From Chlorobiota bacterium (GTDB lineage Bacteria > Bacteroidota > Ignavibacteria > OLB7), in contig JADJXR010000001.1 of NCBI GenBank assembly GCA_016710285.1, positions 3,373,338-3,437,337 on the forward strand: a stretch of DNA of 64,000 bases, given 5' to 3'. Shown here one piece after another: positions 12,243 through 41,011 of the stretch. The stretch's first letter is position 1; every line of letters begins with the position of its first letter. Position numbers and translations under genes: made by a program. The notes below the pieces were generated by a model. That model made no database searches and was not told where the DNA came from. It saw nothing but the letters and a program-made list of their open reading frames with translations.

Positions 12243-14759
12243 ATGAGTACGAAACTCTTAATGCTATTATTGATAGCATCAGTAAGCACAGCAATAGCAC
12301 AACATCTTACACCAATTCCATCATCTAATATTATTGCATTTAATGATGCTCCATTAACCGCAATTCCAATAGATGGATCATTGCTAGTAGGAGGACGATT
12401 TTTAAAATGTGCACCATATAACACTGGAATTGCCACTGTTGATCCGGTATCTGGGAAGATGTTAAATGATATCAGGTTTGATAATGGAGGGAGTCTTGTC
12501 GTATCCGATAGCGGAGGTGGGTATTATCTATTAGTAGGGGCTACCCCACCAGTGAAGTACGGTACTTCAATCCTGAAGAGGATACAATCCGATGGAAAGG
12601 TCCTGTATAGCGTCCCCCTGTTTGTTAATGGAATTGATCGTTTTTCTGGAACGATTGAATGTATGGCCGCAAAAGGAGATACTGTCTATTTAGGTGGTAG
12701 GTTCTCAACAATCAATGGCATTCCAAGAAATTCCATTGCAGCAATTGAAGCGAGTTCCGGTACAATACTGGACTTTAACCCAACTGTAGATAGCAATGTA
12801 CAAAGCATGGTGATATATGGAAATGATATTGTTATTGGCGGATTGTTTGATACCGTGTTGGGTCAGCCGAGAACTGCTCTGGCAAGAATTAATCGCTATC
12901 AAGGAGTGTTGCATGATTGGCCAATAATGCCAACGGCATTAATGCGAACAAAGTTTAATGATCTAATTCATGGTTATAATCGTTTAGTCATTAGCAAAGG
13001 TATACTATATACAATCCGAGGGGCTATTGATCTATCTACAGGAATATCAACCTCATGGAAGCCAGTGCCAGAAAATATTCCGTTAGCACCATATCCTATT
13101 CCACAGATTGTAGATGTTGATGTAAGCGCAGGTCGTATAATCGTTGTTGGTGAATTTACTGGAATCAATGGAAGAAAGCGCAATGGTATTGCTGTTTTCG
13201 ATGAAAAAACAGGTGAATTAACAGAGACGGATCCCAATAAAAACTGGTTAGACCATTATTCATTCCTATCGGCAAATTATTCTAGTGTGCAATGTGTTGG
13301 CTCAATTGCCTATATTGGGGGGATGGATAATTTTATTGGAAGAAAATCTATAGATGGACTAGCCGCGTGTGACATCCTAACTGGAGAAATACAAGAATGG
13401 GAAGTCGCATGCCTTCGACAAAAACCAGGTGCGCAGTACCCTAGTAAAGTAATATATGCTGATCAGAAGCGTGTTTTTGTCCTCGGTTCCCTTGGTTCGA
13501 TTGGTCACCAAATCGTTTCGCGTAATGGCTTTGTAGAATTGTCGAATTCAGGTGATAGAATTCTAGAATGGAATCCTAACTTCAGGAAATATGTGCGACA
13601 ACATTATAGCGATACGGTTGTGCAAATTTCATCAATTCTGATAATCGGTAATATTATTTATATAGGGGGTAATTTCGATTCAGTTAATGGTGTCGCAAGA
13701 AAAAATCTGTGCGCATTTGAACGCACAACCCGCAGCTTACTCCCATGGAACCCTGTAGTGCAAGGACAAATAATAAATGCTATGGCCTATGATAACAGTA
13801 CATTGTATATCGCTGGAAAATTCGATTCTATAAATGGAACAGAGCAACGTTTTGTAGGAGCTATTGATGCTGTAACAGGGGCAATAAAGCGGATAAATAT
13901 AAAAGTAGATACTATAGTTAATTTAATATCCATTCATGATGAACGGTTGTATATCGCCGGAGAATTTAAAGTGGTTAATGATAAAGAACGAAATGGTTTC
14001 GCGGTAATAGATATTCAAAATGGTACTCTTCTGCAAGAAGGGCCAATGCTACCAGCATTAGCTTCAGTTACTGCAATGCTAATATCAGATTCTATTGTGT
14101 ATTTATCTGGTACTCGATTGGGGGCTGAAGTGACACCAATAACAAACCCCATTGGTGGAAGAATGGCATTAGCAGGGTATAACCGTATCACAGGTGCAGT
14201 GCGATGGCAGCCAAATTATCCTATCCCAACGAACGTCAAGGCATCATCTCTAGTGCTGCATCATGGTCTATTATATGCTGGCGCGTTGATGCGCAATAGT
14301 GATAATAGCGGTAAATCATATATAACTACTACAGGGATATTCCAATATGATCCAGTAACAGGAGCAGAGATAGGAAGAACACTAAGCTCTAATACTCCAA
14401 TTATATTATCAATAGTTAATGATACGATTTTTGCAGCTGGACATTTTGATGGAGAAAATGGATGGTCAGGAATGGAGTTTTTTGCTAGATATGACCCTCG
14501 TCAAAATCTTGAAACTAATATTGTAGAAAATTATAAGAACCATTCTCTACACATATGGCCAAACCCAGCAAATAGCTTCATTGAGGTAAATAATGCTGGT
14601 ATGAAGTCAGCCACATTGAGAATCATAAATACTCATGGAGATGTTCTTGAGGAATACGACCTTGCAAAAACGAAATTGGTAGATGTTGGACATCTACCAA
14701 TAGGACAATATATAGCTCAAGTTGGTGTGTACAGCACGAAGTTCACAATATGTAGATAA
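12243..14759 (+). CDS. delta-60-repeat (DUF5122-like beta-propeller) secreted protein with a T9SS C-terminal domain; AT-rich
   Basis: Repeated GGxFxxVNGxxRNxIAAxDxxTGxLxxWNP modules. C-terminal ...HIWPNPANSFIEVNN...IAQVGVYSTKFTICR resembles a T9SS sorting domain. GC is about 37% against about 60% in the flanks. Confidence 0.8.
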   Translation: MSTKLLMLLLIASVSTAIAQHLTPIPSSNIIAFNDAPLTAIPIDGSLLVGGRFLKCAPYNTGIATVDPVSGKMLNDIRFDNGGSLVVSDSGGGYYLLVGATPPVKYGTSILKRIQSDGKVLYSVPLFVNGIDRFSGTIECMAAKGDTVYLGGRFSTINGIPRNSIAAIEASSGTILDFNPTVDSNVQSMVIYGNDIVIGGLFDTVLGQPRTALARINRYQGVLHDWPIMPTALMRTKFNDLIHGYNRLVISKGILYTIRGAIDLSTGISTSWKPVPENIPLAPYPIPQIVDVDVSAGRIIVVGEFTGINGRKRNGIAVFDEKTGELTETDPNKNWLDHYSFLSANYSSVQCVGSIAYIGGMDNFIGRKSIDGLAACDILTGEIQEWEVACLRQKPGAQYPSKVIYADQKRVFVLGSLGSIGHQIVSRNGFVELSNSGDRILEWNPNFRKYVRQHYSDTVVQISSILIIGNIIYIGGNFDSVNGVARKNLCAFERTTRSLLPWNPVVQGQIINAMAYDNSTLYIAGKFDSINGTEQRFVGAIDAVTGAIKRINIKVDTIVNLISIHDERLYIAGEFKVVNDKERNGFAVIDIQNGTLLQEGPMLPALASVTAMLISDSIVYLSGTRLGAEVTPITNPIGGRMALAGYNRITGAVRWQPNYPIPTNVKASSLVLHHGLLYAGALMRNSDNSGKSYITTTGIFQYDPVTGAEIGRTLSSNTPIILSIVNDTIFAAGHFDGENGWSGMEFFARYDPRQNLETNIVENYKNHSLHIWPNPANSFIEVNNAGMKSATLRIINTHGDVLEEYDLAKTKLVDVGHLPIGQYIAQVGVYSTKFTICR

Positions 14760-14776
14760 GGGAATAACACAACAAC

Positions 14777-14808
14777 CATCCGGCAGGTAAGCATTTACCT
14801 GCCGGATG
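14777..14808. terminator. perfect 14-bp hairpin CATCCGGCAGGTAA-GCAT-TTACCTGCCGGATG between the two delta-60 paralogs
   Basis: Read directly. No U-tract, so intrinsic-terminator function is uncertain. Confidence 0.35.
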
Positions 14809-14840
14809 CTCTAACCCATTCACGAAAAACCACAACTACA

Positions 14841-17420
14841 ATGAACGCTACAACTTCCATGTCTCGCCCACTTTTGCTCCTTCTGCTCCTCGCGTTCTTT
14901 TCCCCCGCAATGGCGCAGCAATGGGAAGTCCAGCCACTGCTCCCAGCTCCCGATAATGGAGTCTTGGATGTCGCGAAAATTCATGATCGCCTGATTTTTG
15001 CAGGGAAATTCACCGAGCTTGCCCGATGGAACGGAGGAACCGCACTGTTCGATCTCCACACCGCACAACCCAATCCTCGCTTCTTCTTCCCACGAAATGT
15101 CGAAGCTGCCATCCCGTACAACGGTGGTTGGTTGGTCTATATCCAAGATAGCGCGCTCCTCGGTAGAAATTATGGAACACTCCAGTGGCTTGGTGCAGAT
15201 GGGAACGTAAAACAGAAAATACCCCTGAAATTTAAAGACTCAGGACATGGAGCCAGTGGGATCAACACAATGGCTGCCGATGGAGATACTCTTTATGTTG
15301 CTGGTGGATTTTTTTCTATGAATGACCTAGAACGTGAATATGCCGCAGCACTCCGGATATCTACCGGAGAAATCCTGCAGTGGAAACCACGGGTCAATAA
15401 TTCTATACACTCCATAGTGGTGTCGAATACCGCAGTCTTTATGAGCGGGCTTTTCGACACAGTCTCTGGCAGCTATCAGAAGCGGATAGCACGGGTCTCG
15501 AAAGGCCAGGGTGAGTTGCAGCCGTGGCCGAAACCGATACCAGATCGGTTGACAAATCACTTTTCATTTTATATCAACAAAAAAATACTCTTATGGAAAG
15601 ACCAATTATTCACTGTCAATGGAAGCATGAACATAGAGACGGCAGAGGAAGGGATATGGAAACCATCTCCACTATTATTGGAGAAGCCAGGCCATCCGTT
15701 TTTTATTGCTGACATGACGATAGTGGGTGGGGTGATTTATACGGTTGGTTTTTTTTCATCAATGAACGATGAGCCGCGTAACGGCATGGCAGCATTTTCC
15801 GCAGAGAGCGGCAAGGTGTTGCCCTGGAACCCCAACAAGGGGTGGCAGCCAACAGCGGACAGAGTTGTCCCAACATTATATTTTATCCAGGTTGTGGATA
15901 CGATTGCGTATTGCGCAGGCAGTATCAATAATATCGGGGGCATCCCGGTTCGGGGGATTGGGGCAGTTGCAACCACCACGGGCCAATTGCTCCCCTGGAA
16001 TCCAAGCGTCTCCAACTATACAAGGATTAATAGAAATAGCATCATAGACCTTGTATCACCTGGTTTTCTTGGTGCATCGGAGGACGGAGTGTTAATGGCG
16101 ATCAGCGGAATCGGTACAATCGGCCAACCGCTGACGGCACGATCCGGAATTGCTGAGGTTGACCTCCGCACAGGAGCACTCTCGCCGTGGGACCCGGGCT
16201 TCCGCAGCCGGATGGATCCGGATAGTTTCTATCTGACCTATACGCACATCCATGCGTTGGCACTTCAAGGCTCAACCCTCTATGTTGGGGGTGTCTTCGA
16301 TTCCGTTGGTGGCGTTCCCCGCTCGCGGCTCTGCGCCTTCGATGCCACCACCCACGAACTCCTCCCCTGGAACCCATCGGTCGTCAATGGTGAGTATCCC
16401 GACAGCGTGATCCAGGGATATTGTTGCCACCCCCAAGCGATCTACATCATGGGAACCTTCGACAGCATCGGCGGGGTGGCGCAGAGGTATATCGCCGCAG
16501 TGGACCCGCAGAGCGGAGCGCTGCTGCCGTTTCAAGCAAACCCGAACCGCCCGGTAGCGGCAATGGCCTACAGCGATGGCCGGCTGTATGTTGGCGGGCT
16601 TTTCAGCACCATTGGTGGGAAGCCTCGGAACGGTTTTGCGGTGCTGGATGGGGTCAGTGGCGAGGCATTGGAGGAGGGACCGATGTTCCCGCCGCGTGCC
16701 ACGGTGCAATCGCTGGCGGTGGGCGACACGCTGGTCTATGTATCGGGGATTCGGTTAGGGAAGGAGGTGACGCCGATGATCCGTCCGATTATTGGAGATG
16801 GGAATGGTTTTGGGGGATACGACCGGACAAGCGGGGAGCTACGGTGGTTGCCGAAGTATCCAGTGCCAACGAACACCGGAGCCGCCCGTTTGGAGCTATC
16901 GCCGCGTGGGTTGATGGTCTCGGGGTTGTTTAGTCGGAAGCCATATCAATCCTTGCCTGGGCAGTGGGATTCCTCGAACAACGGGATGATGCGATTGGAC
17001 GCAAGAAGCGGGGAGGTAAAGGGTGAGTGGCCATTGATTGGGGGATCGAATTTTATTGAATGGTCAGATACGTTGCTGATCTGGGAAGAGTCTCCAGACG
17101 AGCAGCAGGGGATACGGATACCGTATTTAGCATTGCTAACGAACGAGCAGTCGAGCGGGGTTGTTGTTGGGCGGGTTGCAATGGAGGGTTCGGGGGAGTT
17201 GCGTGCCTACCCGAACCCATCGAGTGGTCGTGTTCGAGTGGAGTGTGAAGGAGGATGTGAAGGGAAGGAGTTGGAAGTGGTGAACCAGTACGGAGAGCGG
17301 GTGATGCAGCAGGGATTTGGCGAAGGCGGCGAGTGTGTGTTGGACCTTGGCGGCCTAAGCAATGGAGTCTATCTGGTTCGCATCGGAACCCGCAGCGCGA
17401 CGATTGTGGTGCAGAGGTAG
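14841..17420 (+). CDS. delta-60-repeat beta-propeller secreted protein with a T9SS C-terminal domain; GC-rich paralog
   Basis: Same repeat architecture as 12243..14759 (…LLPWNPSV…GGxFxSxGG). C-terminal ...LSNGVYLVRIGTRSATIVVQR. Confidence 0.8.
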   Translation: MNATTSMSRPLLLLLLLAFFSPAMAQQWEVQPLLPAPDNGVLDVAKIHDRLIFAGKFTELARWNGGTALFDLHTAQPNPRFFFPRNVEAAIPYNGGWLVYIQDSALLGRNYGTLQWLGADGNVKQKIPLKFKDSGHGASGINTMAADGDTLYVAGGFFSMNDLEREYAAALRISTGEILQWKPRVNNSIHSIVVSNTAVFMSGLFDTVSGSYQKRIARVSKGQGELQPWPKPIPDRLTNHFSFYINKKILLWKDQLFTVNGSMNIETAEEGIWKPSPLLLEKPGHPFFIADMTIVGGVIYTVGFFSSMNDEPRNGMAAFSAESGKVLPWNPNKGWQPTADRVVPTLYFIQVVDTIAYCAGSINNIGGIPVRGIGAVATTTGQLLPWNPSVSNYTRINRNSIIDLVSPGFLGASEDGVLMAISGIGTIGQPLTARSGIAEVDLRTGALSPWDPGFRSRMDPDSFYLTYTHIHALALQGSTLYVGGVFDSVGGVPRSRLCAFDATTHELLPWNPSVVNGEYPDSVIQGYCCHPQAIYIMGTFDSIGGVAQRYIAAVDPQSGALLPFQANPNRPVAAMAYSDGRLYVGGLFSTIGGKPRNGFAVLDGVSGEALEEGPMFPPRATVQSLAVGDTLVYVSGIRLGKEVTPMIRPIIGDGNGFGGYDRTSGELRWLPKYPVPTNTGAARLELSPRGLMVSGLFSRKPYQSLPGQWDSSNNGMMRLDARSGEVKGEWPLIGGSNFIEWSDTLLIWEESPDEQQGIRIPYLALLTNEQSSGVVVGRVAMEGSGELRAYPNPSSGRVRVECEGGCEGKELEVVNQYGERVMQQGFGEGGECVLDLGGLSNGVYLVRIGTRSATIVVQR

Positions 17421-21858: not shown

Positions 21859-23733
21859 ATGATGAACAACACAACACTAACCACTGGGAAGAAATACATC
21901 AAGGATATTTTTAGTGCTGAACAGTTTTTTAATATTCCAGAATATCAACGACCTTATGTCTGGGGGGATGAACAAATTAGTGCATTCCTTGAAGATGTAA
22001 GCAAGGCAATGGAAACTGACAGCAATAAAGAGTATTTCCTTGGCTGCATGATTTGGAACACTCGACAAGAAAGAGCGAGTAGAAATATTGAGTATGTATA
22101 TCAAGATATTTTAGACGGGCAGCAACGATTCATTACTTTATTTTTATTACATGGAGTTATTAGGGACATTTCGATCGAAGTTAAGCTTCAAGAGAATGTT
22201 CAAAAACGGCTTATTCAAGAGGCAGATGATTATAATAATATTCCTGCACGAAATAGAATTGAATTTGAAATACGAGACGATAAAGACTTTTTAGATAATT
22301 ATGTTATTAATTTAGGAGGCACTCTCAAGGTTAACGAAATTGAAGACGTTATCAATAGTCCAAAATCTGGTGCTTCAATAAAAAATATGGCATCAGGGAT
22401 TTTAATAATGAAAAAATGGTGGATTTATAAATTTAGTGAAAATCAAGGAAGTGAGGAAAAATATTTGGCCGATTTCTATAAATATCTTTCAACTAAAGTA
22501 CTTGCACTTTACTTAGCTACACCAAACAATCTAGATGATGCTTATAATTTATTTACTGTGTTAAACAGCAGAGGGCTCCAACTGCAGGTAAGTGATATTT
22601 TAAGAGCACAAAATCTGAGAGTAATCGAGAATGATGAATTGAGAAAGCTATACGCTTCAAAATGGTCTGATTTCGAAAATTCAATTGCGGCTCCTTACAA
22701 AGGATTCGATGATTTTCTTTGGTCACTGGTGTTTATTAAGATGAAATATCGTAGCGATGACAACAAAAGTTTGACTAAAGCATTTGAGTTTATGTTCAAA
22801 CGCAACATGCTCACAAAGGGGACGGACACTCTTGACTATGTCGGTAAGTATTTGAAGCACTATGAAGCCATCACTAACGGTAGTATAACGAACAGAGAAA
22901 GTCTAAACCTTTTTAGTAATCTAAATTTTATTCTTTCAAGTGTTTATGGTAGTCAATATATCACTCCTCTCATGCATTATCGTGAATGCTTTGGTGATAC
23001 AAGAATTGTCGAATTCTTAATCAAAATTGACAATCTGTTTTCGATTGGCTGGTTGTTGGGTCGCAGGCAGTCGTCAACAAGAACTTTTATTATCCTTCGT
23101 AAAATTGAATCATATTCTGATTTGGTGAAAAAGAAAGAATTAACGATAGACGAAGCGGTCGAAGATTTGCTCAATGATCCATGCTTACAATATGATTTTT
23201 ATGATGATGAAATTTCCTCAGATAAACCAATTGATATTGATGATTTTGCTATTCTACTTAACACCGAAAAATGGGGGAGCTTTTCCGGTACAAGAATCAA
23301 CAAGACAAGATACTTACTGTTAAAAATGGATTTGATTATGGGTAATCCATCAACTATTCTGCAATACAACAAAGATTCATCTTCTATTGAGCATTTGATG
23401 CCACAGAAAATTGAGGGGACACAATGGACTGTTCATCCAGCAAAACATAAAGAGTGGGTTCATAGATTGGGCAACCTTGTACTTATTGATAAAAACAAAA
23501 ATTCATCATTAAGTAATAAGCTGTTCAATGAGAAAAAAACAAAATATCATGGAGCAATTGAAACAAGAGCCAATACGAATTTCATTTTTATTGCTAATCT
23601 GAATTGGGACATTGATGCAATTAAAGCAAACCAAGAACGAACAATAGACCTGTTGATGCAATACTATAAAGGCAATAGTCTGAAATCCTTTCTGCAAATC
23701 AAAAAAAATATAAACTCTACTGTGTTATTATAA
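21859..23733 (+). CDS. GmrSD-family type IV (modification-dependent) restriction endonuclease, DUF262 plus DUF1524
   Basis: N-terminal DUF262/ParB-like motifs (FNIPEYQRPYVWGDEQ, ILDGQQRFITLFLL). C-terminal DUF1524/His-Me finger-like (IEHLMPQK...W...HRLGNLVLIDKNKN). GC is about 33%. Confidence 0.85.
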   Translation: MMNNTTLTTGKKYIKDIFSAEQFFNIPEYQRPYVWGDEQISAFLEDVSKAMETDSNKEYFLGCMIWNTRQERASRNIEYVYQDILDGQQRFITLFLLHGVIRDISIEVKLQENVQKRLIQEADDYNNIPARNRIEFEIRDDKDFLDNYVINLGGTLKVNEIEDVINSPKSGASIKNMASGILIMKKWWIYKFSENQGSEEKYLADFYKYLSTKVLALYLATPNNLDDAYNLFTVLNSRGLQLQVSDILRAQNLRVIENDELRKLYASKWSDFENSIAAPYKGFDDFLWSLVFIKMKYRSDDNKSLTKAFEFMFKRNMLTKGTDTLDYVGKYLKHYEAITNGSITNRESLNLFSNLNFILSSVYGSQYITPLMHYRECFGDTRIVEFLIKIDNLFSIGWLLGRRQSSTRTFIILRKIESYSDLVKKKELTIDEAVEDLLNDPCLQYDFYDDEISSDKPIDIDDFAILLNTEKWGSFSGTRINKTRYLLLKMDLIMGNPSTILQYNKDSSSIEHLMPQKIEGTQWTVHPAKHKEWVHRLGNLVLIDKNKNSSLSNKLFNEKKTKYHGAIETRANTNFIFIANLNWDIDAIKANQERTIDLLMQYYKGNSLKSFLQIKKNINSTVLL

Positions 23734-32247: not shown

Positions 32248-32883
32248 ATGAAACAACCATTTGGCTTGATTGCCGCAGCCTTGATGATGATTGCCACCGC
32301 TGCCGCCCAAACCGTTCCTGCGCCACCGGCAGGCGTTACGCGACCCAGGTACGTTTTCCACGTCACCCAGGCGGGGGTGCAGCTTGGCGACATTGTGATT
32401 GAGCTGTTTCCCGACGTTGCGCCAAAGCATTGCGCAAATTTCGACAGCCTTGTTGCCGCAAAATTCTACGATGGGACAGCGTTCCACCGTGTGATCCCTG
32501 GCTTTATGATTCAGGGGGGAGGGATGAACTCCAAGAACCCGAACGCGCCGCGCAACACGTGGGGGATTAGCGATCCTTCGCAGCGGAAGATCCCGGCCGA
32601 GTTCAACAAAATCTCGCACGTCCGTGGCATCCTTTCCGCCGCCCGCACCGCCGACCCCAACAGCGCGGCATCGCAGTTCTTCATCTGCGTGGCCAATGCC
32701 CCCCACCTTGACGGCCAATATACCGTCTATGGGCAGGTGGTGACAGGGTTGGAGGTGGTTGATAAAATCGTCAACGCCCAAAGGGATAACACCGATAACC
32801 CGCTCCAGCGGATTGATATGAAGGTCGAGAAGCTGGTCCAAAAAACGGTGCGCGGGAAGAACGCCCCGAAAAAAACTAACTGA
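32248..32883 (+). CDS. periplasmic cyclophilin-type peptidyl-prolyl cis-trans isomerase
   Basis: Signal peptide then the cyclophilin core (FHRVIPGFMIQGGG...SAARTADPNSAASQFFIC). Confidence 0.9.
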   Translation: MKQPFGLIAAALMMIATAAAQTVPAPPAGVTRPRYVFHVTQAGVQLGDIVIELFPDVAPKHCANFDSLVAAKFYDGTAFHRVIPGFMIQGGGMNSKNPNAPRNTWGISDPSQRKIPAEFNKISHVRGILSAARTADPNSAASQFFICVANAPHLDGQYTVYGQVVTGLEVVDKIVNAQRDNTDNPLQRIDMKVEKLVQKTVRGKNAPKKTN

Positions 32884-32952
32884 GCAAACCGCCCGGCAGC
32901 CGCTGGCCAGTTCCTTCGGCTTCCACGATGGTGAGCTTGCTCATGCTTTCTC

Positions 32953-32993
32953 AATCTGCCGTGGCACGCACAACGCCACGGCAGATTTTTTTT
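32953..32993 (+). terminator. Rho-independent terminator (ATCTGCCGTGGC-N9-GCCACGGCAGAT plus T9)
   Basis: 12-bp perfect stem followed by TTTTTTTTT, directly downstream of the cyclophilin gene. Confidence 0.85.
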
Positions 32994-33177
32994 TGGGGGG
33001 GGTGAGAACTTTCGCCCCTATCGTTGTCTTTATGATGGTAGGATTGAGCGCCGAACACGGTTTGCGGCCGGGGCGAAGCTGCCAAGATGGTAATGGTGAC
33101 AGTGGGAGAGCAGGGAAAATCATCAATTGCCACCCATTATCGGAAAGCGGCTCCGTTTCTGCCCAACCGAAATCCAA

Positions 33178-33215
33178 CAAGGGGAACCAACGCTGGTTCC
33201 CCTTGTTTCGTTTTG
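33178..33215 (+). terminator. second terminator-like hairpin (CAAGGGGAACCA-ACGC-TGGTTCCCCTTG plus TTTCGTTTTG)
   Basis: 12-bp perfect stem and a T-rich tail about 185 nt after the first terminator, with no ORF in between. Confidence 0.55.
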
Positions 33216-33334
33216 CCCCCCTTGCTTCCGTGCGGATGCTGCGGCGTGGCTCACCAATTCTCCTCACCAATTTTCTCCACCACTTGACAACCGAACATCA
33301 CATTGCCTATCTTTGCTTTTAAGTACGCTTAACA

Positions 33335-34039
33335 ATGAATCTTAACCTGACCACAGAAGATTATCTCCGCTCGCTGTACAAGCTGGAAAGCCGGGATCTG
33401 AAAGCCACGAACGCCGCATTGGCAAAGGAGCTGAACGTCACCTCGGCAGCGGTCACCGATATGCTGCGGAAGCTGGACGAGCTTGGGCTGGTCAGCTACC
33501 AGAAGTACAAAGGGGTGGCGCTGACGAAATCTGGGCTGGCGATTGCCACGCGCATCACCCGCCGGCATCGGTTGTGGGAGGTGTTCCTGATCCAGCACTT
33601 GCACTTTGCCTGGGATGAAGTCCACGACCTTGCCGACCAGCTGGAGCATATCCGCTCCGATGAGCTTACCGAGCGTTTAGATGAGTTCCTGGGCCACCCC
33701 CAGCACGATCCCCACGGCGACCCCATTCCCACCCGCGATGGAGTGGTCCCCGTCCGCATCCTGACCCCGATTGGCCAGCTTCAGCCCGGGGAGGAGGGGA
33801 CGGTGCAGCGGGTAAGCGACGAGTTCCCAGAACTGCTTCGCTACGCGGTGATGGTGGGGCTTTCGCTTGGTTCCCACATCAAGGCGATTGAGCGGATTCA
33901 GTTCGACGGCTCGGTGCGGCTGGTGGCCGATGGGCGCGAATCCGTTATCTCCGCCAAACTGGCCGAAAGCGTTTTTGTGGAGCTGGTTCCAGGAAGCTCG
34001 GTACGCCAAGCCAAGAAGAAATCAGGGGGGAAGAAGTGA
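33335..34039 (+). CDS. DtxR/MntR-family metal-dependent transcriptional repressor with a C-terminal FeoA/SH3-like domain
   Basis: DtxR N-terminal HTH (EDYLRSLYKLES...), metal-binding region (RRHRLWEVFLIQHL...DEVHDLADQLEHI), C-terminal SH3-like domain. Confidence 0.85.
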   Translation: MNLNLTTEDYLRSLYKLESRDLKATNAALAKELNVTSAAVTDMLRKLDELGLVSYQKYKGVALTKSGLAIATRITRRHRLWEVFLIQHLHFAWDEVHDLADQLEHIRSDELTERLDEFLGHPQHDPHGDPIPTRDGVVPVRILTPIGQLQPGEEGTVQRVSDEFPELLRYAVMVGLSLGSHIKAIERIQFDGSVRLVADGRESVISAKLAESVFVELVPGSSVRQAKKKSGGKK

Positions 34040-34506
34040 AAAAACGGGTGCTGTTTTTGGACGATGACCACCGCCGGATCGCGACCTTCCGCGAGCAAGT
34101 GATGCGGAATGAGTTCGAACTCACCGTGGTGGAAACCGCCCACGAGTGTATCGAGGCCTTGGCCAACCGGCAATTCGACCTCGTTCTGCTGGACCACGAT
34201 TTGGGGGGGGAGACCTTTGTTGACAGCAGCCGCGAGGATACGGGAATGGAGGTGGTGCGGTGGATTGGGGCAAAGGGATTGCCCGCCGGAGCCTTCATCG
34301 TCCACACGATGAACCCCGTGGCCGCCACAACCATGTACTTCCAGCTTCAGCAATGGGGGCATCGCGTGGAGCAGGCTCCATTTGGTTCAAGCCGATTTTA
34401 CGGGGCACTTGAGGAGCTGCTTGAAGTCCGCGCCCGCCGCACCAAGCAACGGAAATCGCTGCTGGTTCGGCTAAGGGAGTATTTCCGCTCCATTCGCTTT
34501 AAGTAG
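34036..34506 (+). CDS. stand-alone CheY-like receiver domain protein (orphan response-regulator receiver)
   Basis: LFLDDDHRR and LVLLDHDLGG acidic pockets, with a later T. The GTG start overlaps the dtxR stop (GTGA). No output domain. Confidence 0.55.
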   Translation: MKKRVLFLDDDHRRIATFREQVMRNEFELTVVETAHECIEALANRQFDLVLLDHDLGGETFVDSSREDTGMEVVRWIGAKGLPAGAFIVHTMNPVAATTMYFQLQQWGHRVEQAPFGSSRFYGALEELLEVRARRTKQRKSLLVRLREYFRSIRFK

Positions 34507-34554
34507 GAACGGGCTGGGCTTTGGGTCAGCAGAAATCATAATCCAATATCAACA

Positions 34555-35478
34555 ATGAAACTCAAGATTCTCCTTCTCCTTGCCGTTCTTCTGTTTGCCG
34601 GATGTGGCGGCGGAAGCGATAGCCCGCAGCCAAAAAAACTTCGGATCGTCACCACCACCGGCATGATTGAAGATGCGGTTCGGAACATCGTTGGCGACGA
34701 CTCCGCTGCCGCCACCATCACCGCCTTGATGGGACCCGGCGTGGATCCCCACCTCTACAAGGCTTCCCAGCAAGACCTCTCGCTCCTGACCGAGGCTGAT
34801 ATCATCTTCTATAACGGGCTGCACCTTGAAGGAAAAATGGTGGAAGTGCTGCAGAAACTTGCCCGCACAAAACCAGTGGTGGCCGTGGCCGACGGCGTGG
34901 ACCCCGCAAAACTTCGCACCCCGCCCGAGTTCAACGGCAACCACGACCCCCACATCTGGTTCGACGTGAAGTTGTGGGAGGGAGGGGTCCGGAAGATTGC
35001 CCAGACGCTGCAGGCCCAGGATACGGCCAACGCAGCGCGCTACCGCCAGCACGCCGAACGCTACGTGCGGCAGCTGGACTCGCTGGACCGGTGGGTGCGG
35101 GACCATATCGCCACCATCCCCAACGAAGGCCGGGTGCTGATAACCGCCCACGATGCCTTTGGATACTTCGGCCAAGCCTACGGCATCGAGGTGCGCGGCC
35201 TGCAAGGAATCAGCACCGTGAGTGAGTACGGGCTGGCCGATGTTCAGGCGTTGGTTGAGATGATTGCAAGCCGGAACATCAAGGCCGTGTTCGTGGAATC
35301 AAGCGTTCCGCGCCGTTCAATTGAAGCTGTAGTTGAGGGGGTGAAGGCCAAAGGGAAGAACGTGACGATTGGCGGCCAGCTTTTCTCCGATGCCATGGGG
35401 GCCAAAGGGACCCCAGAAGGGACGTACATCGGCATGGTTTCCGCCAACGTCAACACCATCGTCAACGCGCTGAAATAA
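34555..35478 (+). CDS. metal ABC transporter substrate-binding lipoprotein (cluster 9 / TroA-MntC-ZnuA family)
   Basis: Lipobox LLFAGCGG and the TroA fold pattern (LRIVTTTGMIED, DPHLY, DPHIWFD, AHDAFGYF). Confidence 0.9.
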   Translation: MKLKILLLLAVLLFAGCGGGSDSPQPKKLRIVTTTGMIEDAVRNIVGDDSAAATITALMGPGVDPHLYKASQQDLSLLTEADIIFYNGLHLEGKMVEVLQKLARTKPVVAVADGVDPAKLRTPPEFNGNHDPHIWFDVKLWEGGVRKIAQTLQAQDTANAARYRQHAERYVRQLDSLDRWVRDHIATIPNEGRVLITAHDAFGYFGQAYGIEVRGLQGISTVSEYGLADVQALVEMIASRNIKAVFVESSVPRRSIEAVVEGVKAKGKNVTIGGQLFSDAMGAKGTPEGTYIGMVSANVNTIVNALK

Positions 35479-35491
35479 TGGAGATGGATTA

Positions 35492-36340
35492 ATGGAGATG
35501 GATGGAATGGAGAATGGCATGAAGAACGGAAAAGAACATAGGCCGGAAGGAGTGGAATCGCCAGGAATTTCCCCGCTGGAAGTTCACGACCTCACCGTCA
35601 GCTACAACCGCCGGCCCGTGCTGTGGGACATTGATTTCACCGTGCCGGAGGGGAAGCTGATTGCGGTGGTGGGGCCGAACGGAGCGGGGAAATCAACGCT
35701 GATTAAAGCCGCAATGGGGCTGATCCCATCGGCCAGTGGTTACGTCCGGTTTTTTGGGCAGGGCCTTGCCGAAGCCCGCCAGCGTGTGGCCTACGTCCCG
35801 CAGCGGACCTCGGTGGATTGGGATTTCCCCACCGACGCGCTGGACGTTGTGCTGATGGGCCGCTACGGGCGGTTGCGGTTGTTCCAACGCCCCCGCCGTG
35901 CCGACGTTGAAGCCGCCCACGAAGCGTTGAACAAAGTGGGGATGCAGCAGTTCGCCAACCGGCAGATTTCGCAGCTTTCCGGTGGGCAGCAGCAGCGGGT
36001 GTTCCTTGCCCGCGCGCTTGCCCAGGATGCGGACCTGTACCTGATGGATGAGCCGTTCGCCGGGGTGGATGCCGCCACCGAGGCCGCCATTGTTGAGCTT
36101 CTTCGCCAGATGCGCGCCCTGGGGAAAACCGTCATCGTTGTTCACCACGACCTGCAAACCGTCCAAGATTACTTCGATTGGGCACTGCTGCTGAATATGC
36201 GGCTGATTGCCTTTGGCCCAATGGAGCAAGCCTTCACCAACCAGCTTCTGCAAAAAACCTACGGCGGGCGGCTGAACCTTCTGACAGAAGTTGCGGACCT
36301 GATACGCCACGAACAACGGAAGGAGCGGGACCCGCTATGA
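35492..36340 (+). CDS. metal ABC transporter ATP-binding protein
   Basis: Walker A GPNGAGKST, signature LSGGQQQRV, Walker B LYLMDEPFAGVD. The start is uncertain because several ATGs fall inside a short tandem repeat. Confidence 0.85.
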   Translation: MEMDGMENGMKNGKEHRPEGVESPGISPLEVHDLTVSYNRRPVLWDIDFTVPEGKLIAVVGPNGAGKSTLIKAAMGLIPSASGYVRFFGQGLAEARQRVAYVPQRTSVDWDFPTDALDVVLMGRYGRLRLFQRPRRADVEAAHEALNKVGMQQFANRQISQLSGGQQQRVFLARALAQDADLYLMDEPFAGVDAATEAAIVELLRQMRALGKTVIVVHHDLQTVQDYFDWALLLNMRLIAFGPMEQAFTNQLLQKTYGGRLNLLTEVADLIRHEQRKERDPL

Positions 36341-37632
36341 GCGAATCCGACCTTCTGGATTTCTTCCTGCTTCGCCAACACAACATCCGCGTGGTGGTGT
36401 TGGGGACGATGCTGCTGGGGATTGGCTCAGCGGCCATTGGCTGCTACGCCTTTCTTCGCAAACGCTCGCTGGTGGGCGATGCCGTTGCCCATGCCGCGCT
36501 CCCCGGGGTTGCGGTTGCGTTCATGCTGACCGGGGTGAAAAACCCGGCGGTGATTCTGGTTGGCGCGGCCATTGCCGGGTGGCTTAGCATGGTGGCAATG
36601 GACCTGATTGTCCGCCGCTCCAAAATCCGCGAGGATGCCGCAATCGGGATCGTCCTTAGCGTCTTTTTCGGCCTGGGAATCTTGCTGCTGACGCGGATTC
36701 AAAAAAGCGGATCGGCGGATCAAGCCGGGCTGGATAAATTCCTATTCGGCCAGGCCGCATCGCTGGTGACGGGGGATGTGGTGGTGTTCGGCGCGGTCAG
36801 TTTGGGGCTGGTGGTGGGGATTGTGTTGCTCCACAAGGAGTTCAAATCCATCTCGTTCGATGCTGACTTTGCCCGCTCGATCGGCCTTCCGGTGCGCGGG
36901 CTGGAGCTTGCCATGACCACGATGCTGGTCCTTGCCGTGGTTGTTGGAATCCAAGCCGTTGGGGTGGTGCTGATGGCCGCCATGCTGATTACCCCCGCCG
37001 CCGCCGCACGCTACTGGACCGACCGCCTGACGGTGATGCTGCTTTTGGCCGGAATCTTCGGCGCGGCGGCCGGCTACGGCGGGGCCTTTGTCAGCTACGT
37101 TGCGCCGCGAATGCCCACCGGCCCCTGGATCGTCACCGCTGGAACGCTCATCTTCCTTCTGTCGCTGCTTGCTGCCCCGCGCCGTGGGGTGATTGCCCGG
37201 GTCCTGCGTAACCGCCGCAATAGCCGCAAAACGTTGGAGGAGAATATCCTGAAAACCTTGTATCAGCTTGGCGAGGAGCCTGGGGGGATGTTCCGCCTTC
37301 ACACCGCCGCCGACGTTGCGCGCCGCCGCCGAATCCCGGAATCCCAGGCACTTCGTGGGCTGGGGGTGCTGCGCCGTAGCGGGTTTATCCAGCGGACCGA
37401 AAACGGATGGAAACTGACCCAAGAAGGGGAGAAGCAAGGGCGCAGAGTGACGCGGCTTCATCGCCTGTGGGAGGTGTATCTGACCGAGCACGTCAGCATT
37501 GCCCCGGACCATGTTCACGACGATGCCGAGTCAATCGAGCATGTGCTTACCCCCGAGCTGGAAGCTGAGTTAGAGGCCGTGCTGAACCGCCCCGCCAACG
37601 ACCCCCACCAACGCGCAATTCCATATCAATAA
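36337..37632 (+). CDS. metal ABC transporter permease fused to a C-terminal DtxR-family repressor domain (YtgCR-like)
   Basis: ABC-3 permease TM core, then a C-terminal 140 aa (ENILKTLYQLGEE...RLHRLWEVYLTEHVSIAPDHVHDDAESIEHVL...NDPHQRAIP) that aligns with the HTH and metal-binding regions of DtxR and of the dtxR gene at 33335. The start overlaps the ATPase stop (ATGA). Confidence 0.85.
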   Translation: MSESDLLDFFLLRQHNIRVVVLGTMLLGIGSAAIGCYAFLRKRSLVGDAVAHAALPGVAVAFMLTGVKNPAVILVGAAIAGWLSMVAMDLIVRRSKIREDAAIGIVLSVFFGLGILLLTRIQKSGSADQAGLDKFLFGQAASLVTGDVVVFGAVSLGLVVGIVLLHKEFKSISFDADFARSIGLPVRGLELAMTTMLVLAVVVGIQAVGVVLMAAMLITPAAAARYWTDRLTVMLLLAGIFGAAAGYGGAFVSYVAPRMPTGPWIVTAGTLIFLLSLLAAPRRGVIARVLRNRRNSRKTLEENILKTLYQLGEEPGGMFRLHTAADVARRRRIPESQALRGLGVLRRSGFIQRTENGWKLTQEGEKQGRRVTRLHRLWEVYLTEHVSIAPDHVHDDAESIEHVLTPELEAELEAVLNRPANDPHQRAIPYQ

Positions 37633-37642
37633 CCAAATACCG

Positions 37643-38455
37643 ATGGCCCAGAAACCACTCTCCATTCTCGGCTTGCTGATGGTGGCATCGGCAACCACTT
37701 TTTCCCAAGAGATGGCAACCGACCGCCCCGACCAGACGGAATCGTCGTGGGTGATACCGAAGGGATTTCTTCAGATTGAAACGGGCCTAAGCATTGGCCG
37801 CCACACGCCCCCCCAGATTTCCGGCCAAGCTGCCCTGACGCTGCAGAACCTGAATCTTGCTTCCACGCTTGTTCGCGTTGGCGTGCTGGAGCGGCTGGAG
37901 CTTCGGTTGGAAGGGGGGTATCGGGTGGAGCGGTCGGAAGCAACGCAAAGCGTGGGGCCGATTGAAGAATCAGTTGTGGAATCGCTGGAAGGAATGGACG
38001 CAGTTGCCGTTGGGGTGAAAGTCGGAATCGCCGAGGAAGATGGCCCGCTTCCAGAAACATCGCTGATCCTTCACACCACGCTCCCCGTTGGCGATTCTCC
38101 GTTCGGCCCCAGCTACGTTCTCCCCGATTTCCGTTTCACCCTTAGCCACTCGCTGGGGAAGTCACTCAGCTTGGGGTACAACATCGGTGCCGAGTGGGGC
38201 GATGCCGGAAACCCTCCCGACGGCATTTACACGCTGGTGGTTGGGAGCGATCTTGCCGAAACCATTGGCGGGTTTGTTGAGCTGTTCGGGACGCTTTCGC
38301 CTGGGGGACCGCCGCAGCATACGCTGGATGGAGGGCTGACCTGGGCCGCAAGCGATGACGTGCAGCTGGATGCCTCGGCAGGAATCGGCCTGACCGAATC
38401 GGTCGAGGATTTTTTCGCCAGTGCAGGGGTCTCCTTCCGGCTGAGTGCCTGGTAG
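37643..38455 (+). CDS. putative outer-membrane beta-barrel protein (MetA-pathway/transporter-like family)
   Basis: Signal peptide, alternating amphipathic beta-strand pattern, C-terminal ...GVSFRLSAW (aromatic terminal residue). Confidence 0.55.
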   Translation: MAQKPLSILGLLMVASATTFSQEMATDRPDQTESSWVIPKGFLQIETGLSIGRHTPPQISGQAALTLQNLNLASTLVRVGVLERLELRLEGGYRVERSEATQSVGPIEESVVESLEGMDAVAVGVKVGIAEEDGPLPETSLILHTTLPVGDSPFGPSYVLPDFRFTLSHSLGKSLSLGYNIGAEWGDAGNPPDGIYTLVVGSDLAETIGGFVELFGTLSPGGPPQHTLDGGLTWAASDDVQLDASAGIGLTESVEDFFASAGVSFRLSAW

Positions 38456-38610
38456 CCGCCCCGACCTTCGTCGGAATGACCGCCCCGACCTTCGTCGGGG
38501 TAGCCGAAGGTCTTTAGCCTTCGGTGTCTTCTTTCTAGAAATGACTGGGCCCCGACGGAGGTCGGGGCCGCTACCCCGTCTGTTATCAACCCCGTCGGGG
38601 GTCGAAACTG
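38452..38610. repeat. cluster of GC-rich palindromic repeat elements (CCCCGACCTTCGTCGG twice, CCGAAGGTCTTTAGCCTTCGG, CCCCGACGGAGGTCGGGG)
   Basis: Direct and inverted repeats read directly. A related copy lies at 54135-54270 and a shorter one at 44284-44313. Confidence 0.55.
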
Positions 38611-38641
38611 CTTCCCTTCTAACTCTATTTTGGTTTCCATC

Positions 38642-39559
38642 ATGGACCTCAACGCATTCTGGATTATTCTTACTGGCGCGCTGGCGGCGGGGGCTTGCGC
38701 GTTGGTGGGATCGTTTTTGGTGCTGCGGAAAATGGCGATGCTGGGGGATGCGATTAGCCACGCCGTGCTTCCCGGGATTGCCATTGCCTTTTTCCTGACC
38801 GGAAGCCGCGCGCCGTTGCCGATGCTGATTGGCGCGGGGGTGCTGGGGGTTGCCGCCTCGGTGATGATCGAGGCGCTTCACCGCAGCGGAAAATTGCAGC
38901 AGGATGCCTCGATTGGCATCACCTTCACGTGGCTGTTTGCTGTTGGGGTGATCCTGATCTCACTCTTTGCCGGCGCGGTGGACCTGGACCAGGATTGCGT
39001 GCTGTATGGTGAGATTGCCTACGTCCCGCTGGACCTGATCACCACCGGAAGCGGCGCAAGCCTTGGGCCGCGTGCGGTGTGGGTGGTGGGTGGAATCTTC
39101 CTGCTGAACCTTGTGTTTGTGGTGGCGTTCTTCCGGCGGCTGACCATCGTCTCGTTCGACCCCGCGCTGGCCGCCTCGCTTGGGATTTCCACCGCGCTGT
39201 GGCACTACGCGTTGATGGGGATGGTCTCGCTTACCACCGTTGCTTCGTTCGAGTCGGTGGGGGCAATTTTGGTGGTGGCAATGTTGATTGCCCCGGCGGC
39301 CACCGCCTACCTTCTTACCGAGCGATTGAAACGAATGCTTGTTCTTTCGGTGGCTTCGGGGGTTCTTTCGGCGGTTGGTGGATACTATCTTGCAGCACTT
39401 CTTGATGGATCGGTTGCCGGAGCAATGGCAGTGGTTGCCGGGGTGCAGTTTGCGCTGGCGGCGATTGCAAGCCGATGGTGGGCGATAAAGGAGCAGAAAT
39501 CCGCGGCGCGAAGCCATTTGCCCGAAATCGGAGAACAGCTGCCAGCGGCTGGCGGATAA
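38642..39559 (+). CDS. metal ABC transporter permease (second ABC-3 permease)
   Basis: ABC-3 permease TM pattern (GDAISHAVLPGIAIAF...). ATG at 38642 (MDLNAFW) is taken; the ORF track uses a TTG at 38630. Confidence 0.85.
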   Translation: MDLNAFWIILTGALAAGACALVGSFLVLRKMAMLGDAISHAVLPGIAIAFFLTGSRAPLPMLIGAGVLGVAASVMIEALHRSGKLQQDASIGITFTWLFAVGVILISLFAGAVDLDQDCVLYGEIAYVPLDLITTGSGASLGPRAVWVVGGIFLLNLVFVVAFFRRLTIVSFDPALAASLGISTALWHYALMGMVSLTTVASFESVGAILVVAMLIAPAATAYLLTERLKRMLVLSVASGVLSAVGGYYLAALLDGSVAGAMAVVAGVQFALAAIASRWWAIKEQKSAARSHLPEIGEQLPAAGG

Positions 39560-39684
39560 GGATTGGCGGGGAATGTTGGATGTGAAAGCAAGTGTGGTGG
39601 GACCCGTCTGCATCGTTACCCATTTGCCAAGCAAGCCATCATCAAGACGGTTCCTTGCACAATCAATATCAACGCGCTACTCCC

Positions 39685-40254
39685 ATGAAAAAAGCCTTGA
39701 AGTGGATCGGCATTGGCCTGCTTGCTGCCTTCGTCATCATTCAATTCTTCCGTCCCGAACGCGAAAACCCGGCCAGCATTGCCGGCCAAAGCATCTGGGC
39801 CGATCCCACAATGACCCCAAAAGTGGAGCAGATACTGCGCCGCTCCTGCAACGATTGCCACTCCAACGAAACCGTCTGGCCCTGGTACAGCAACATCGCC
39901 CCTGTCTCCTGGCTTGTGGCGCATGATGTGGAAGAAGGGCGGAAGCATCTCAACTTCTCCACGTGGCTTACCCGCCCCGCCGAAAAACGGGAGCATAAGT
40001 TGGAGGAGATTGCCGAAGAAGTTCAGAAACGGGAGATGCCGCTGCCGATCTATCTTATCACCCACGGCGACGCAGCACTGAGCAACGAAGACGTAGCGGC
40101 CCTGAAAGAATGGAGCGATTATGCCCGCCGCCAACTAACCGCTCCACCCGCGCCAAGCCCAACAACAGCCGACTCGGGGGCAATCCCAGAAAAAAGTGCC
40201 GAGCTGAAGAAAATGGAAGAGAAGCGGGAGTTTATCCCCGAGCATCACCGCTAA
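39685..40254 (+). CDS. heme-binding domain-containing membrane-anchored protein
   Basis: N-terminal TM helix and a CNDCHS...W motif with a conserved Trp-rich segment (PF14376-like). Confidence 0.6.
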
Positions 40255-40303
40255 AGCGGGTGGATGTTTCCTTGATGTTACGCGGTTGTTCTCCAAATAT
40301 TCA

Positions 40304-41011
40304 ATGCCTACACAAACCCTTGTTATCGCGATTGACGGGCCAGCCGCCAGTGGGAAAAGCACCACTGCGCGGCTGGTTGCCGAACGGCTTGGCTACACCT
40401 ACATTGACACCGGCGCAATGTACCGCGCCGTGACGTTGGCGGCGCTCCGCCGGGGCCTGGACCCATCCGATGAAGCCGCCGTTAGTGCCCTTGCCAACGC
40501 ACTCCAGATTGCCTTTGTGCGCAACCCCGGCACCGGAAACCTGCAGACGCTGCTTGATGGCGAAGATGTCTCGCAGGAAATTCGCACCCCCCAGGTGACG
40601 CGGAACGTCTCGCTGGTAAGCAGCTATGCCGGCGTGCGTGGGCCGGTTGTGGCGTTGCAGCAACGGATGGGGGAGCAAGGTGGGGTGGTGATGGATGGCC
40701 GCGACATCGGGACCGTGGTCTTCCCAAACGCCGATCTGAAAATTTTTATGGTGGCCAATTTGGACGCACGCGCCGCGCGCCGCCATGTTGAACTGCAACA
40801 CCAGGGGACCGCGATTGGGCTGGATAATCTTGCCAACGAACTTGCCGAACGGGACCGCCAAGACAGCACCCGCCACCACAGCCCACTCCGCAAAGCCGAT
40901 GACGCGGTGGAGATTGATACTTCGGGGCTGACGATTGAGGAGCAGGTGGAGAAAGTGCTGGCGTTGGTTGCAAGCCGGCAAGCCCAGCACCAGCAGAACG
41001 AACATCAGTAA
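40304..41011 (+). CDS. cmk: cytidylate kinase
   Basis: [14 protein letters not shown]-loop. [10 protein letters not shown] matches Cmk. The ORF track start is a TTG at 40286. Confidence 0.9.

Follow-up and report, generated by a model that had tools for sequence, protein, structure and literature searches.

A C-terminal two-domain DtxR module on an ABC-3 permease in a metal-importer operon of a Chlorobiota bacterium, and its possible role as a membrane-tethered metal sensor

A permease gene with a DtxR-like extension

We analysed a 64,000-nucleotide stretch of DNA from a Chlorobiota bacterium (assembly GCA_016710285.1, contig JADJXR010000001.1, positions 3,373,338 to 3,437,337 of the forward strand), hereafter the window, and in particular its gene at 36337-37632. 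An initial annotation made from the sequence alone had read this gene as an ATP-binding cassette (ABC) permease fused to a complete DtxR-family repressor domain, comparable to YtgC-YtgR of Chlamydia. The gene is a single unbroken open reading frame (ORF) of 431 amino acids on the + strand, and its ATG shares the four nucleotides ATGA (36337-36340) with the stop codon of the ATPase gene that lies 5' of it. The encoded protein is made of four parts:

36337..37179, + strand: residues 1-281, ABC-3 (TroC/YtgC/PsaC-type) permease domain with about 9 membrane helices (Pfam, hydropathy, AlphaFold2, Foldseek)
37180..37233, + strand: residues 282-299, short basic linker (APRRG turn, then ARVLRNRRNSRK), predicted to be helical (AlphaFold2)
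37234..37416, + strand: residues 300-360, winged helix-turn-helix (HTH) subdomain (alignment to DtxR residues 9-60; AlphaFold2)
37417..37632, + strand: residues 361-431 and the stop codon, metal-binding/dimerisation subdomain (Pfam PF02742)

By scanning the protein with Pfam, we found ABC-3 on residues 16-278 (E 1.9e-65) and PF02742 (Fe_dep_repr_C) on residues 361-429 (E 2.1e-22). PF01325, the DtxR DNA-binding domain, gave no match in the fusion at E<=0.01, nor in ten divergent relatives of it scanned at E<=0.001. Residues 301-430 nevertheless align to profile positions 10-142 of the NCBIfam models MntR (E 9e-13) and DtxR (E 4e-10). When the tail was compared by phmmer with PDB sequences, its last 141 residues matched, end to end, the two-domain core of DR2539, SloR, ScaR, DtxR and IdeR (E 1.5e-15 to 1e-7; in DtxR this core is residues 9-133). 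Over 129 residues, the fused module and the free DtxR of the gene at 33335 share 34% identity (E 6e-20).

The AlphaFold2 (AF2) model of the fusion, which drew on 119 homologues, has a mean predicted local distance difference test score (pLDDT) of 95.7 and a predicted template modelling (TM) score of 0.90, with every residue at 70 or above. In Foldseek, its membrane part superposes on PsaC of PsaBC (7KYP) with a TM score of 0.90, a root-mean-square deviation (rmsd) of 2.4 Å and 33% identity, and its tail on DR2539 (8PVT/8PW0) with an rmsd of 1.7 Å over 131 columns, HTH included, and a TM score of 0.83. The winged-helix elements are helix α1, which carries E302 and N303, helix α3 (335-347) and the wing (351-360), and α1-α3 together with the beta wing are modelled at pLDDT above 90.

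Together, these data make it almost certain that the gene joins an ABC-3/TroC-type permease to a two-domain DtxR module. The proposed likeness to the YtgCR architecture, the alignment of the last 140 or so residues to both the HTH and the metal-binding/dimerisation regions and the parallel to the DtxR at 33335 were all borne out. The word "complete" was right for the two domains, HTH and metal-binding/dimerisation; the third, SH3/FeoA-like domain of the free DtxR is missing from the fused module. The identical protein is already present in NCBI from Chlorobi-bacterium metagenome-assembled genomes (MAGs), where it is named either metal ABC transporter permease or DtxR family regulator.

The operon and its single operator

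The genes around the fusion are the following:

33335..34039, + strand: free three-domain DtxR/MntR-family repressor (HTH, metal/dimer and FeoA/SH3-like domains; PF01325 2.3e-16, PF02742 1.1e-30, PF04023 4.5e-12)
34036..34506, + strand: small receiver-domain protein, cREC_REC (Pfam PF20274 9.8e-19)
34555..35478, + strand: TroA-like periplasmic metal-binding lipoprotein of the ZnuA family (Pfam ZnuA 4.1e-78)
35492..36340, + strand: ABC ATPase subunit (Pfam ABC_tran 8.2e-31)
37643..38455, + strand: predicted outer-membrane beta-barrel of the Phenol_MetA_deg family, between the two permease genes (Pfam PF13557 3.3e-21)
38630..39559, + strand: second, TroD/YtgD-like ABC-3 permease, lacking a C-terminal module (Pfam ABC-3 6.2e-53)
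39592-40254: Haem_bd protein, next after the second permease

Judged by its products, this is a predicted Tro/Ytg-type Mn/Zn/Fe ABC importer operon, with a TroA-like binding protein, an ATPase and two ABC-3 permeases. The binding protein matches TroA of Treponema pallidum (1TOA) at E 1.7e-83, and the DPH, DPH, HDAF and SDAMG metal-site motifs align. The metal-uptake setting claimed at the outset therefore holds, and so does the presence of a canonical dtxR, which heads the operon; this free DtxR scores 6.8e-51 against the Thermus-type MntR model of NCBIfam. The fusion is the first permease gene in the order binding protein, ATPase, permease, permease, with the barrel gene inserted in the clade of the window. 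In almost every related locus the second permease gene lies 3' of the fusion gene, and its product is the presumed heterodimer partner of the fusion. The ATPase (282 residues) showed no additional domain in the Pfam scan. As to the barrel gene, we found it at the same place in three related loci (L001, L003 and L006) and at other positions of the cluster in five (L031, L039, L058, L082 and L083); the protein has no sequence relative in the PDB and may be a candidate outer-membrane metal channel.

Upstream of dtxR we identified two regulatory features:

33284..33315, + strand: promoter-like site, TTGACA (33284-33289) followed by TATCTTTG (33308-33315), from a sigma-70-like pattern score
33317..33334, no strand: palindromic operator TTTTAAGTACGCTTAACA (core TTAAG-N4-CTTAA, 33319-33332), 3' of the promoter and 5' of the dtxR ATG

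The promoter-like site is the top sigma-70-like match within 32800-40400 (10 of 12 positions), and we take TATCTTTG to be a Bacteroidota-type -7 element (motif TAnnTTTG). The palindrome TTTTAAGTACGCTTAACA occurs as a single copy in the window. In most of the related loci, a palindrome of a related form, TTTAGAnnnnTCTAAA, stands 35-60 nucleotides 5' of the gene that opens the operon, be it dtxR or the gene for the binding protein. The window and its two relatives L006 and L001 have the palindrome at a common position and in the variant form TTAAG-N4-CTTAA, in which both half-sites are altered symmetrically, as would be expected of a genuine operator. Also, the arms of the operon palindromes match the published DR2539 operator ATTTTAGTCGCGCCTAAAAT. 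The operon appears to be transcribed from one promoter with one DtxR-type palindromic operator. A second type of operator, dedicated to the fused module, was considered and rejected: we found no further inverted repeat in 33210-33345, and in related loci with two palindromes both are of the same type.

In Pontibacter pudoricolor (CP048106, locus L005) the palindrome has the form TTTTAGAnnnnTCTAAAA. There, and in the other Pontibacter loci L008, L017, L022, L025, L028, L037, L040 and L061, it is located about 1150 nucleotides upstream of dtxR. In L005, the one Pontibacter locus with gene calls, it precedes a gene for a FabH-like protein (ACP_syn_III), and this suggests that the latter gene is part of the metal-regulated transcription unit.

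By searching the operon with Rfam, we found no riboswitch or other known RNA at gathering thresholds; the lone match at E<=1 was discarded as a chance match to a microRNA model. Two intergenic regions, both without an Rfam match, are nonetheless rich in hairpins. In the 174 nucleotides that separate the barrel gene from the second permease gene (38456-38629), GC-rich hairpins are dense and mutually exclusive (38483-38500, 38487-38512, 38504-38524 and 38548-38569, for example), one of them being followed by a T-rich tract; they could form an attenuator or a processing site acting on expression of the second permease. The 450-nucleotide region 5' of dtxR (32884-33334) holds two strong terminator-like hairpins on the + strand, at about 32957-32995 and at 33176-33207 (14-bp stem and T tract). 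Between them we saw no convincing ORF, and the region could correspond to a small RNA or to a remnant.

The cREC_REC gene (cyclic-phosphate processing receiver) overlaps the 3' end of dtxR, and among the other loci only the closest relatives, L001 and L006, have it. L001 has an extra methyltransferase gene at the cREC_REC position.

Distribution and natural variants of the fusion

We then asked how common this architecture is. It is shared by all 120 of the best homologues (56-90% identity), so that the orthologous permeases, on which the initial annotation had proposed a check, do carry the extension. In a library in which each 50%-identity cluster is represented by one protein, end-to-end fusions of 405-470 amino acids make up 109 of the 150 best representatives, with identity down to 33% (12,233 matches in all). 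Searching genomes at one per species with an 11-sequence alignment gave at least 578 confirmed relatives, of which the best 80 are all full-length fusions. These 80 come from Cytophagales, Chitinophagales, Flavobacteriales, Saprospiraceae, Balneolia, Rhodothermaceae and one Hydrogenedentota MAG, and the relatives are mostly Bacteroidota and allies. Orthologous permease-repressor fusions in 11 phyla are attributed to Thompson et al. 2012 in the review PMC5599777. The permease-DtxR fusion is thus widespread, of a kind known since 2011-2012, and not the rarity outside Chlamydia that it had been taken for.

Its coexistence with a free dtxR is no peculiarity either. In a survey of 84 related loci by BLAST of all ORFs, 53 had the free dtxR, the binding protein, the ATPase, the fusion and the second permease together, which makes this the majority arrangement. 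Cultivable bacteria, namely Pontibacter and Reichenbachiella, carry the same operon. The nearest species-representative locus (L006, JADZEY010000132.1; 90% identity, identical gene order) is labelled an Armatimonadota MAG, and the identical protein mentioned above a Chlorobi bacterium; one of the two labels is probably a binning or classification error.

Some relatives depart from the common architecture. In Isosphaera/Planctomyces MAGs, we found on 4 contigs an 824-residue protein (L087/L088, 5001-7475) in which a permease is followed by the DtxR module, then by an extra hydrophobic stretch with its Ala/Pro-rich spacer, and finally by the second permease. Its gene adjoins a divergently transcribed free dtxR, and a separate second permease gene is missing. 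If the number of membrane helices in the permease is odd, with the N-terminus outside and the C-terminus inside, the topology would call for just such an extra hydrophobic segment. As predicted from its sequence, the protein is in effect a heterodimeric transporter made naturally as one chain, in which the module is held at both ends. Two cluster representatives (P0125 and P0151) have the order permease-permease-DtxR. About 12 of the 150 representatives have only a winged-helix-sized extension and no metal domain. Taken together, these variants suggest that the appendage may have a role at the transporter itself.

The winged-helix-only extensions measure 85-95 amino acids at the C-terminus of an ABC-3 permease (P0173, P0204, P0250 and similar). 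In the operon of L092 (5001-7249) both permeases are extended, and in L086 (5879-6994) the extension, with a faint HemN_C match, is on the second permease. An apparent permease-DtxR-permease order in P0143 was not used as evidence, its end looking frameshifted.

The metal sites and the dimer patch are kept

By mapping ligands through alignments to DtxR and DR2539 numbering, we found that all ligands of the primary and ancillary metal sites are retained in the fusion, as O/N-type residues. The primary site consists of N303 (M10 in DtxR, D11 in DR2539), E398 (C102 in DtxR, E102 in DR2539), E401 (E105) and H402 (H106), and the ancillary site of H375 (H79), E379 (E83), H394 (H98), D422 (D126) and H424 (H128). 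Each of them is conserved at 0.62-0.97 among 120 diverse fusions. The equivalent of D130 is not retained, and the tertiary site of DR2539 is absent (L374 in place of H78). O/N ligands at the M10 and C102 positions are typical of manganese-responsive DtxR members, and the ligand set predicted for the fused module resembles that of manganese sensors.

The counterpart of the DR2539 dimer patch is preserved as well, and in the 120 diverse fusions interface residues fall within the 0.62-0.97 range given for the ligands. In the 53 genomes that have both proteins, W378, Y381 and L382 are invariant (53/53), and L386, I388, A389, I400, L408 and L412 are mostly hydrophobic. Some interface positions are however fixed differently in the fused and the free protein (Y385/K, I388/F, T399/Q, I404/K and L415/F, fused residue first). 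Co-evolution of the two interfaces was looked for with a shuffle test over the 53 genomes and rejected for want of a specific signal: agreement between free and fused proteins of the same genome was no higher at the interface than elsewhere (z about 2 for both).

The DNA-reading face is conserved in the free protein and variable in the fused one

Since the fused and free proteins of one genome share a species tree, pairing them was the most informative test. Over the 53 genomes, mean pairwise identity is 0.56 for the free HTH and 0.68 for the free metal/dimer domain, compared with 0.37 and 0.66 for the fused HTH and metal/dimer domain; it is 0.65 for the permease domain and 0.32 for the linker. 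Positions conserved in the free protein and variable in the fused one are T26, N27, A30, A38, S39, D42, Y55, K57 and G60 (free numbering). These sites, variable in the fused protein only, fall at the start of α2, in the recognition helix and in the wing, that is on the DNA-contact face, and in the free DtxR the recognition helix and wing are highly conserved across the same genomes. Likewise, the most frequent residue at DNA-contact positions reaches a frequency of 0.1-0.35 in 120 diverse fusions versus 0.8-0.9 in free proteins; for surface residues of the fused recognition helix the values are 0.14-0.35. In the fused winged helix, the residues of the hydrophobic core are conserved (L338, L342, L345, G349, W358 and L360), which indicates that the fold itself is maintained. 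We also considered whether the fused HTH is under stronger constraint in loci lacking a linked dtxR and rejected the idea, as its identity is no higher there (0.34 versus 0.37).

The junction is predicted to be rigid

In the AF2 model, the APRRG turn comes after the last membrane helix (261-279) and leads into a single helix (285-312, pLDDT above 90) that comprises both the linker and α1, and we saw no disordered or flexible linker. G284, conserved at 0.98, is the sole conserved residue of the linker, whose net charge averages +6.3 over the 53 genomes. No conserved cleavage-like motif was found in the linker among 120 diverse fusions. Separate translation of the module was rejected as well: the in-frame codons GTG285, TTG300, TTG308 and ATG318 are not conserved, and a start at ATG318 would in addition remove helix α1. 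The charged loops, together with where the coupling helix (about 166-181) lies in the model, lead us to infer that the C-terminus of the fusion is cytoplasmic. The module would thus be a cytoplasmic appendage of 15-17 kDa (15.2 kDa for residues 300-431).

A tethered sensor, a released repressor or a decoy

The reading that we put forward, as plausible and still short of probable, is that the fused module is a membrane-tethered metal sensor and that the free DtxR reads the operator. The free protein would act as the operator-specific repressor, because its recognition helix and wing are conserved and match a conserved operator. The fused module would work while tethered, sensing cytoplasmic metal; we propose this because its DNA-contact positions have diverged and because its link to the membrane domain is rigid. 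Bound metal would clamp helix α1, through N303, onto the metal domain (E398, E401 and H402), and the movement of α1 would pass via the continuous helix to the last membrane helix and the transporter. The outcome would be a fast post-translational feedback on uptake, with transcriptional control left to the free repressor. The absence of both a conserved internal start and a flexible linker supports tethered action, and a role at the membrane fits the existence of the doubly anchored 824-residue Planctomycete proteins and of the winged-helix-only variants.

With a little more reserve, we extend this proposal to the family: outside Chlamydia, the fused DtxR module may be a repurposed metal-sensing domain rather than a transcription factor, shutting import when cytoplasmic Mn/Zn/Fe rises, with the winged helix kept as a structural or docking element. 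If true, this would put the DtxR fold to a new use and give metal ABC importers their first trans-inhibition domain.

Several points weigh against a tethered sensor. We know of no ABC metal importer with such a regulatory domain, and the only experimental precedent, Chlamydia YtgCR, is cleaved, its C-terminal product being a repressor. In addition, 16 of the loci with enough upstream sequence have the operator and no linked copy of a free dtxR. The α2-α3-wing region carries a higher charge in the fused module than in the free protein (+5.1 versus +2.8), which fits DNA binding and leaves room for a non-specific or lineage-specific contact with DNA. Finally, the conserved dimer patch with its class-specific residues suggests that the module still pairs with a partner, and it is not obvious why a lone sensor on a heterodimeric transporter would need one.

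The main rival, which we regard as somewhat less likely, is a release like that of YtgR: a protease would cut off the module, which would then dimerise, bind metal and repress the operon or other genes alongside the free DtxR, either redundantly or hierarchically. Chlamydia trachomatis offers the precedent, with both cleavage and an iron- and operator-dependent repression. A complete two-domain fold within 1.7 Å of DNA-bound DR2539, conserved metal ligands and dimer patch, an HTH surface that remains basic and the 16 loci just mentioned all agree with such a repressor. Yet the DNA-contact positions of the fused module are not conserved in the very genomes where the operator and the contacts of the free DtxR are, a flexible linker and a conserved cleavage motif are both absent, and the Planctomycete variant is fixed at both ends. 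Moreover, winged-helix-only variants cannot be metal-dependent repressors, and the Chlamydia product of 28-30 kDa is much larger than the 15-17 kDa module, so that the cut there is not at the domain boundary. The comparative evidence, from the lack of a flexible linker in the model and from the unconserved DNA contacts, thus argues against release as the main mode of action. We consider it improbable that the module is a membrane decoy, in which it would heterodimerise with a free DtxR monomer and hold the repressor at the transporter, tuning the threshold of repression much as PtsG sequesters Mlc. A free dtxR does co-occur in 53 of the 84 loci, the DNA-reading head would be dispensable, and the metal/dimer consensus is nearly identical in the two proteins, including HRLWE.(Y/F)L. 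On the other hand, the class-specific interface residues form a pattern typical of mutually insulated paralogues, same-genome co-variation is not specific to the interface, and the fusion persists equally where free dtxR is unlinked. That a frameshift in sequencing or the loss of a stop codon artificially merged a permease gene and a small DtxR gene is extremely improbable. We found no evidence in support of it; in Treponema, the two-domain TroR is a separate gene of the tro operon (PMC2628430), which shows that an unfused form exists. The same 431-residue gene call is made on at least 23 contigs from independent assemblies, and this, with the like architecture of the best 80 loci, excludes an artefact of this sort, which the initial annotation had itself named as a possible refutation. 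The 109 of 150 cluster representatives with the same continuous architecture and the confident continuous helix at the junction in the AF2 model speak against it too. The remaining probability is kept for roles outside these readings.

Comparison with known systems

The closest parallel is YtgC-YtgR of C. trachomatis (YtgCR, CT069, in ytgABCD), in which an ABC-3 permease and a C-terminal DtxR-family module are also encoded in one ORF. It is likewise the third gene in the order binding protein, ATPase, permease, permease of a Tro-like transporter. Its YtgR product of 28-30 kDa represses in an iron-dependent and operator-dependent way. Cleavage and DNA binding have been demonstrated for Chlamydia YtgCR only, and the fusion of the window is likened to it by architecture and gene order. 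The two systems differ in that the operon of the window adds a free three-domain DtxR, whereas YtgR is described as the sole iron-dependent regulator known in Chlamydia. Also, DNA-contact residues are not conserved across orthologues of the window-type fusions, and the WWW motif is absent from the window protein.

TroABCD of Treponema shares with the window operon a very close TroA and two ABC-3 permeases. Its regulator TroR is DtxR-like and lacks an SH3 domain; it has its own gene at the operon's end, whereas in the window the equivalent two-domain module forms the tail of the first permease and an additional three-domain DtxR comes first. An operator with dyad symmetry is given for TroR in PMC2628430.

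The nearest solved homologue of the module is DR2539 of Deinococcus radiodurans, an Mn/Fe-dependent regulator with 33-34% identity. The equivalents of its primary- and ancillary-site ligands are kept in the module, except that D11 is replaced by N303. DR2539 is however soluble, a dimeric repressor that has an ancillary third domain, and the module of the window is membrane-anchored.

For the activity that we propose, the likeness is to the C2 domain of MetN and the C-terminal domain of ModC, substrate-sensing regulators of ABC importers that act by trans-inhibition. In both cases an attached cytoplasmic domain would bind the imported substrate and lower transport, the analogy being one of function only. 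The MetN and ModC domains have unrelated folds and are carried by the ATPase subunit, while the module of the window is on the permease and its ATPase has no extra domain. To our knowledge, neither a DtxR-fold domain nor a metal importer is known to use trans-inhibition of the MetN/ModC kind.

One further fusion would not be news; it is the comparative pattern that deserves attention. Across hundreds of free-living Bacteroidota and allies, a fused module found beside a free DtxR has kept its metal sites and dimer patch, has lost the conservation of its DNA-reading face and is rigidly joined to the membrane domain. This raises a testable question, namely whether the cleave-and-repress scheme of Chlamydia is general for the family or whether a transporter-attached sensor is ancestral and common. 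In the literature, we found no functional tests of such fusions outside Chlamydia.

Other features of the window

Away from the operon, a gene for a GmrSD-type (type IV, modification-dependent) restriction endonuclease (21859-23733) was probably acquired horizontally; it sits in an island of low GC content, 0.36 where the window has about 0.57. Finally, two large beta-propeller proteins with Por_Secre_tail (type IX secretion) sorting domains are encoded at 12243-17420, the first of them in a region of about 40% GC; these proteins fit an organism of the Bacteroidota/Chlorobi/Ignavibacteria group.

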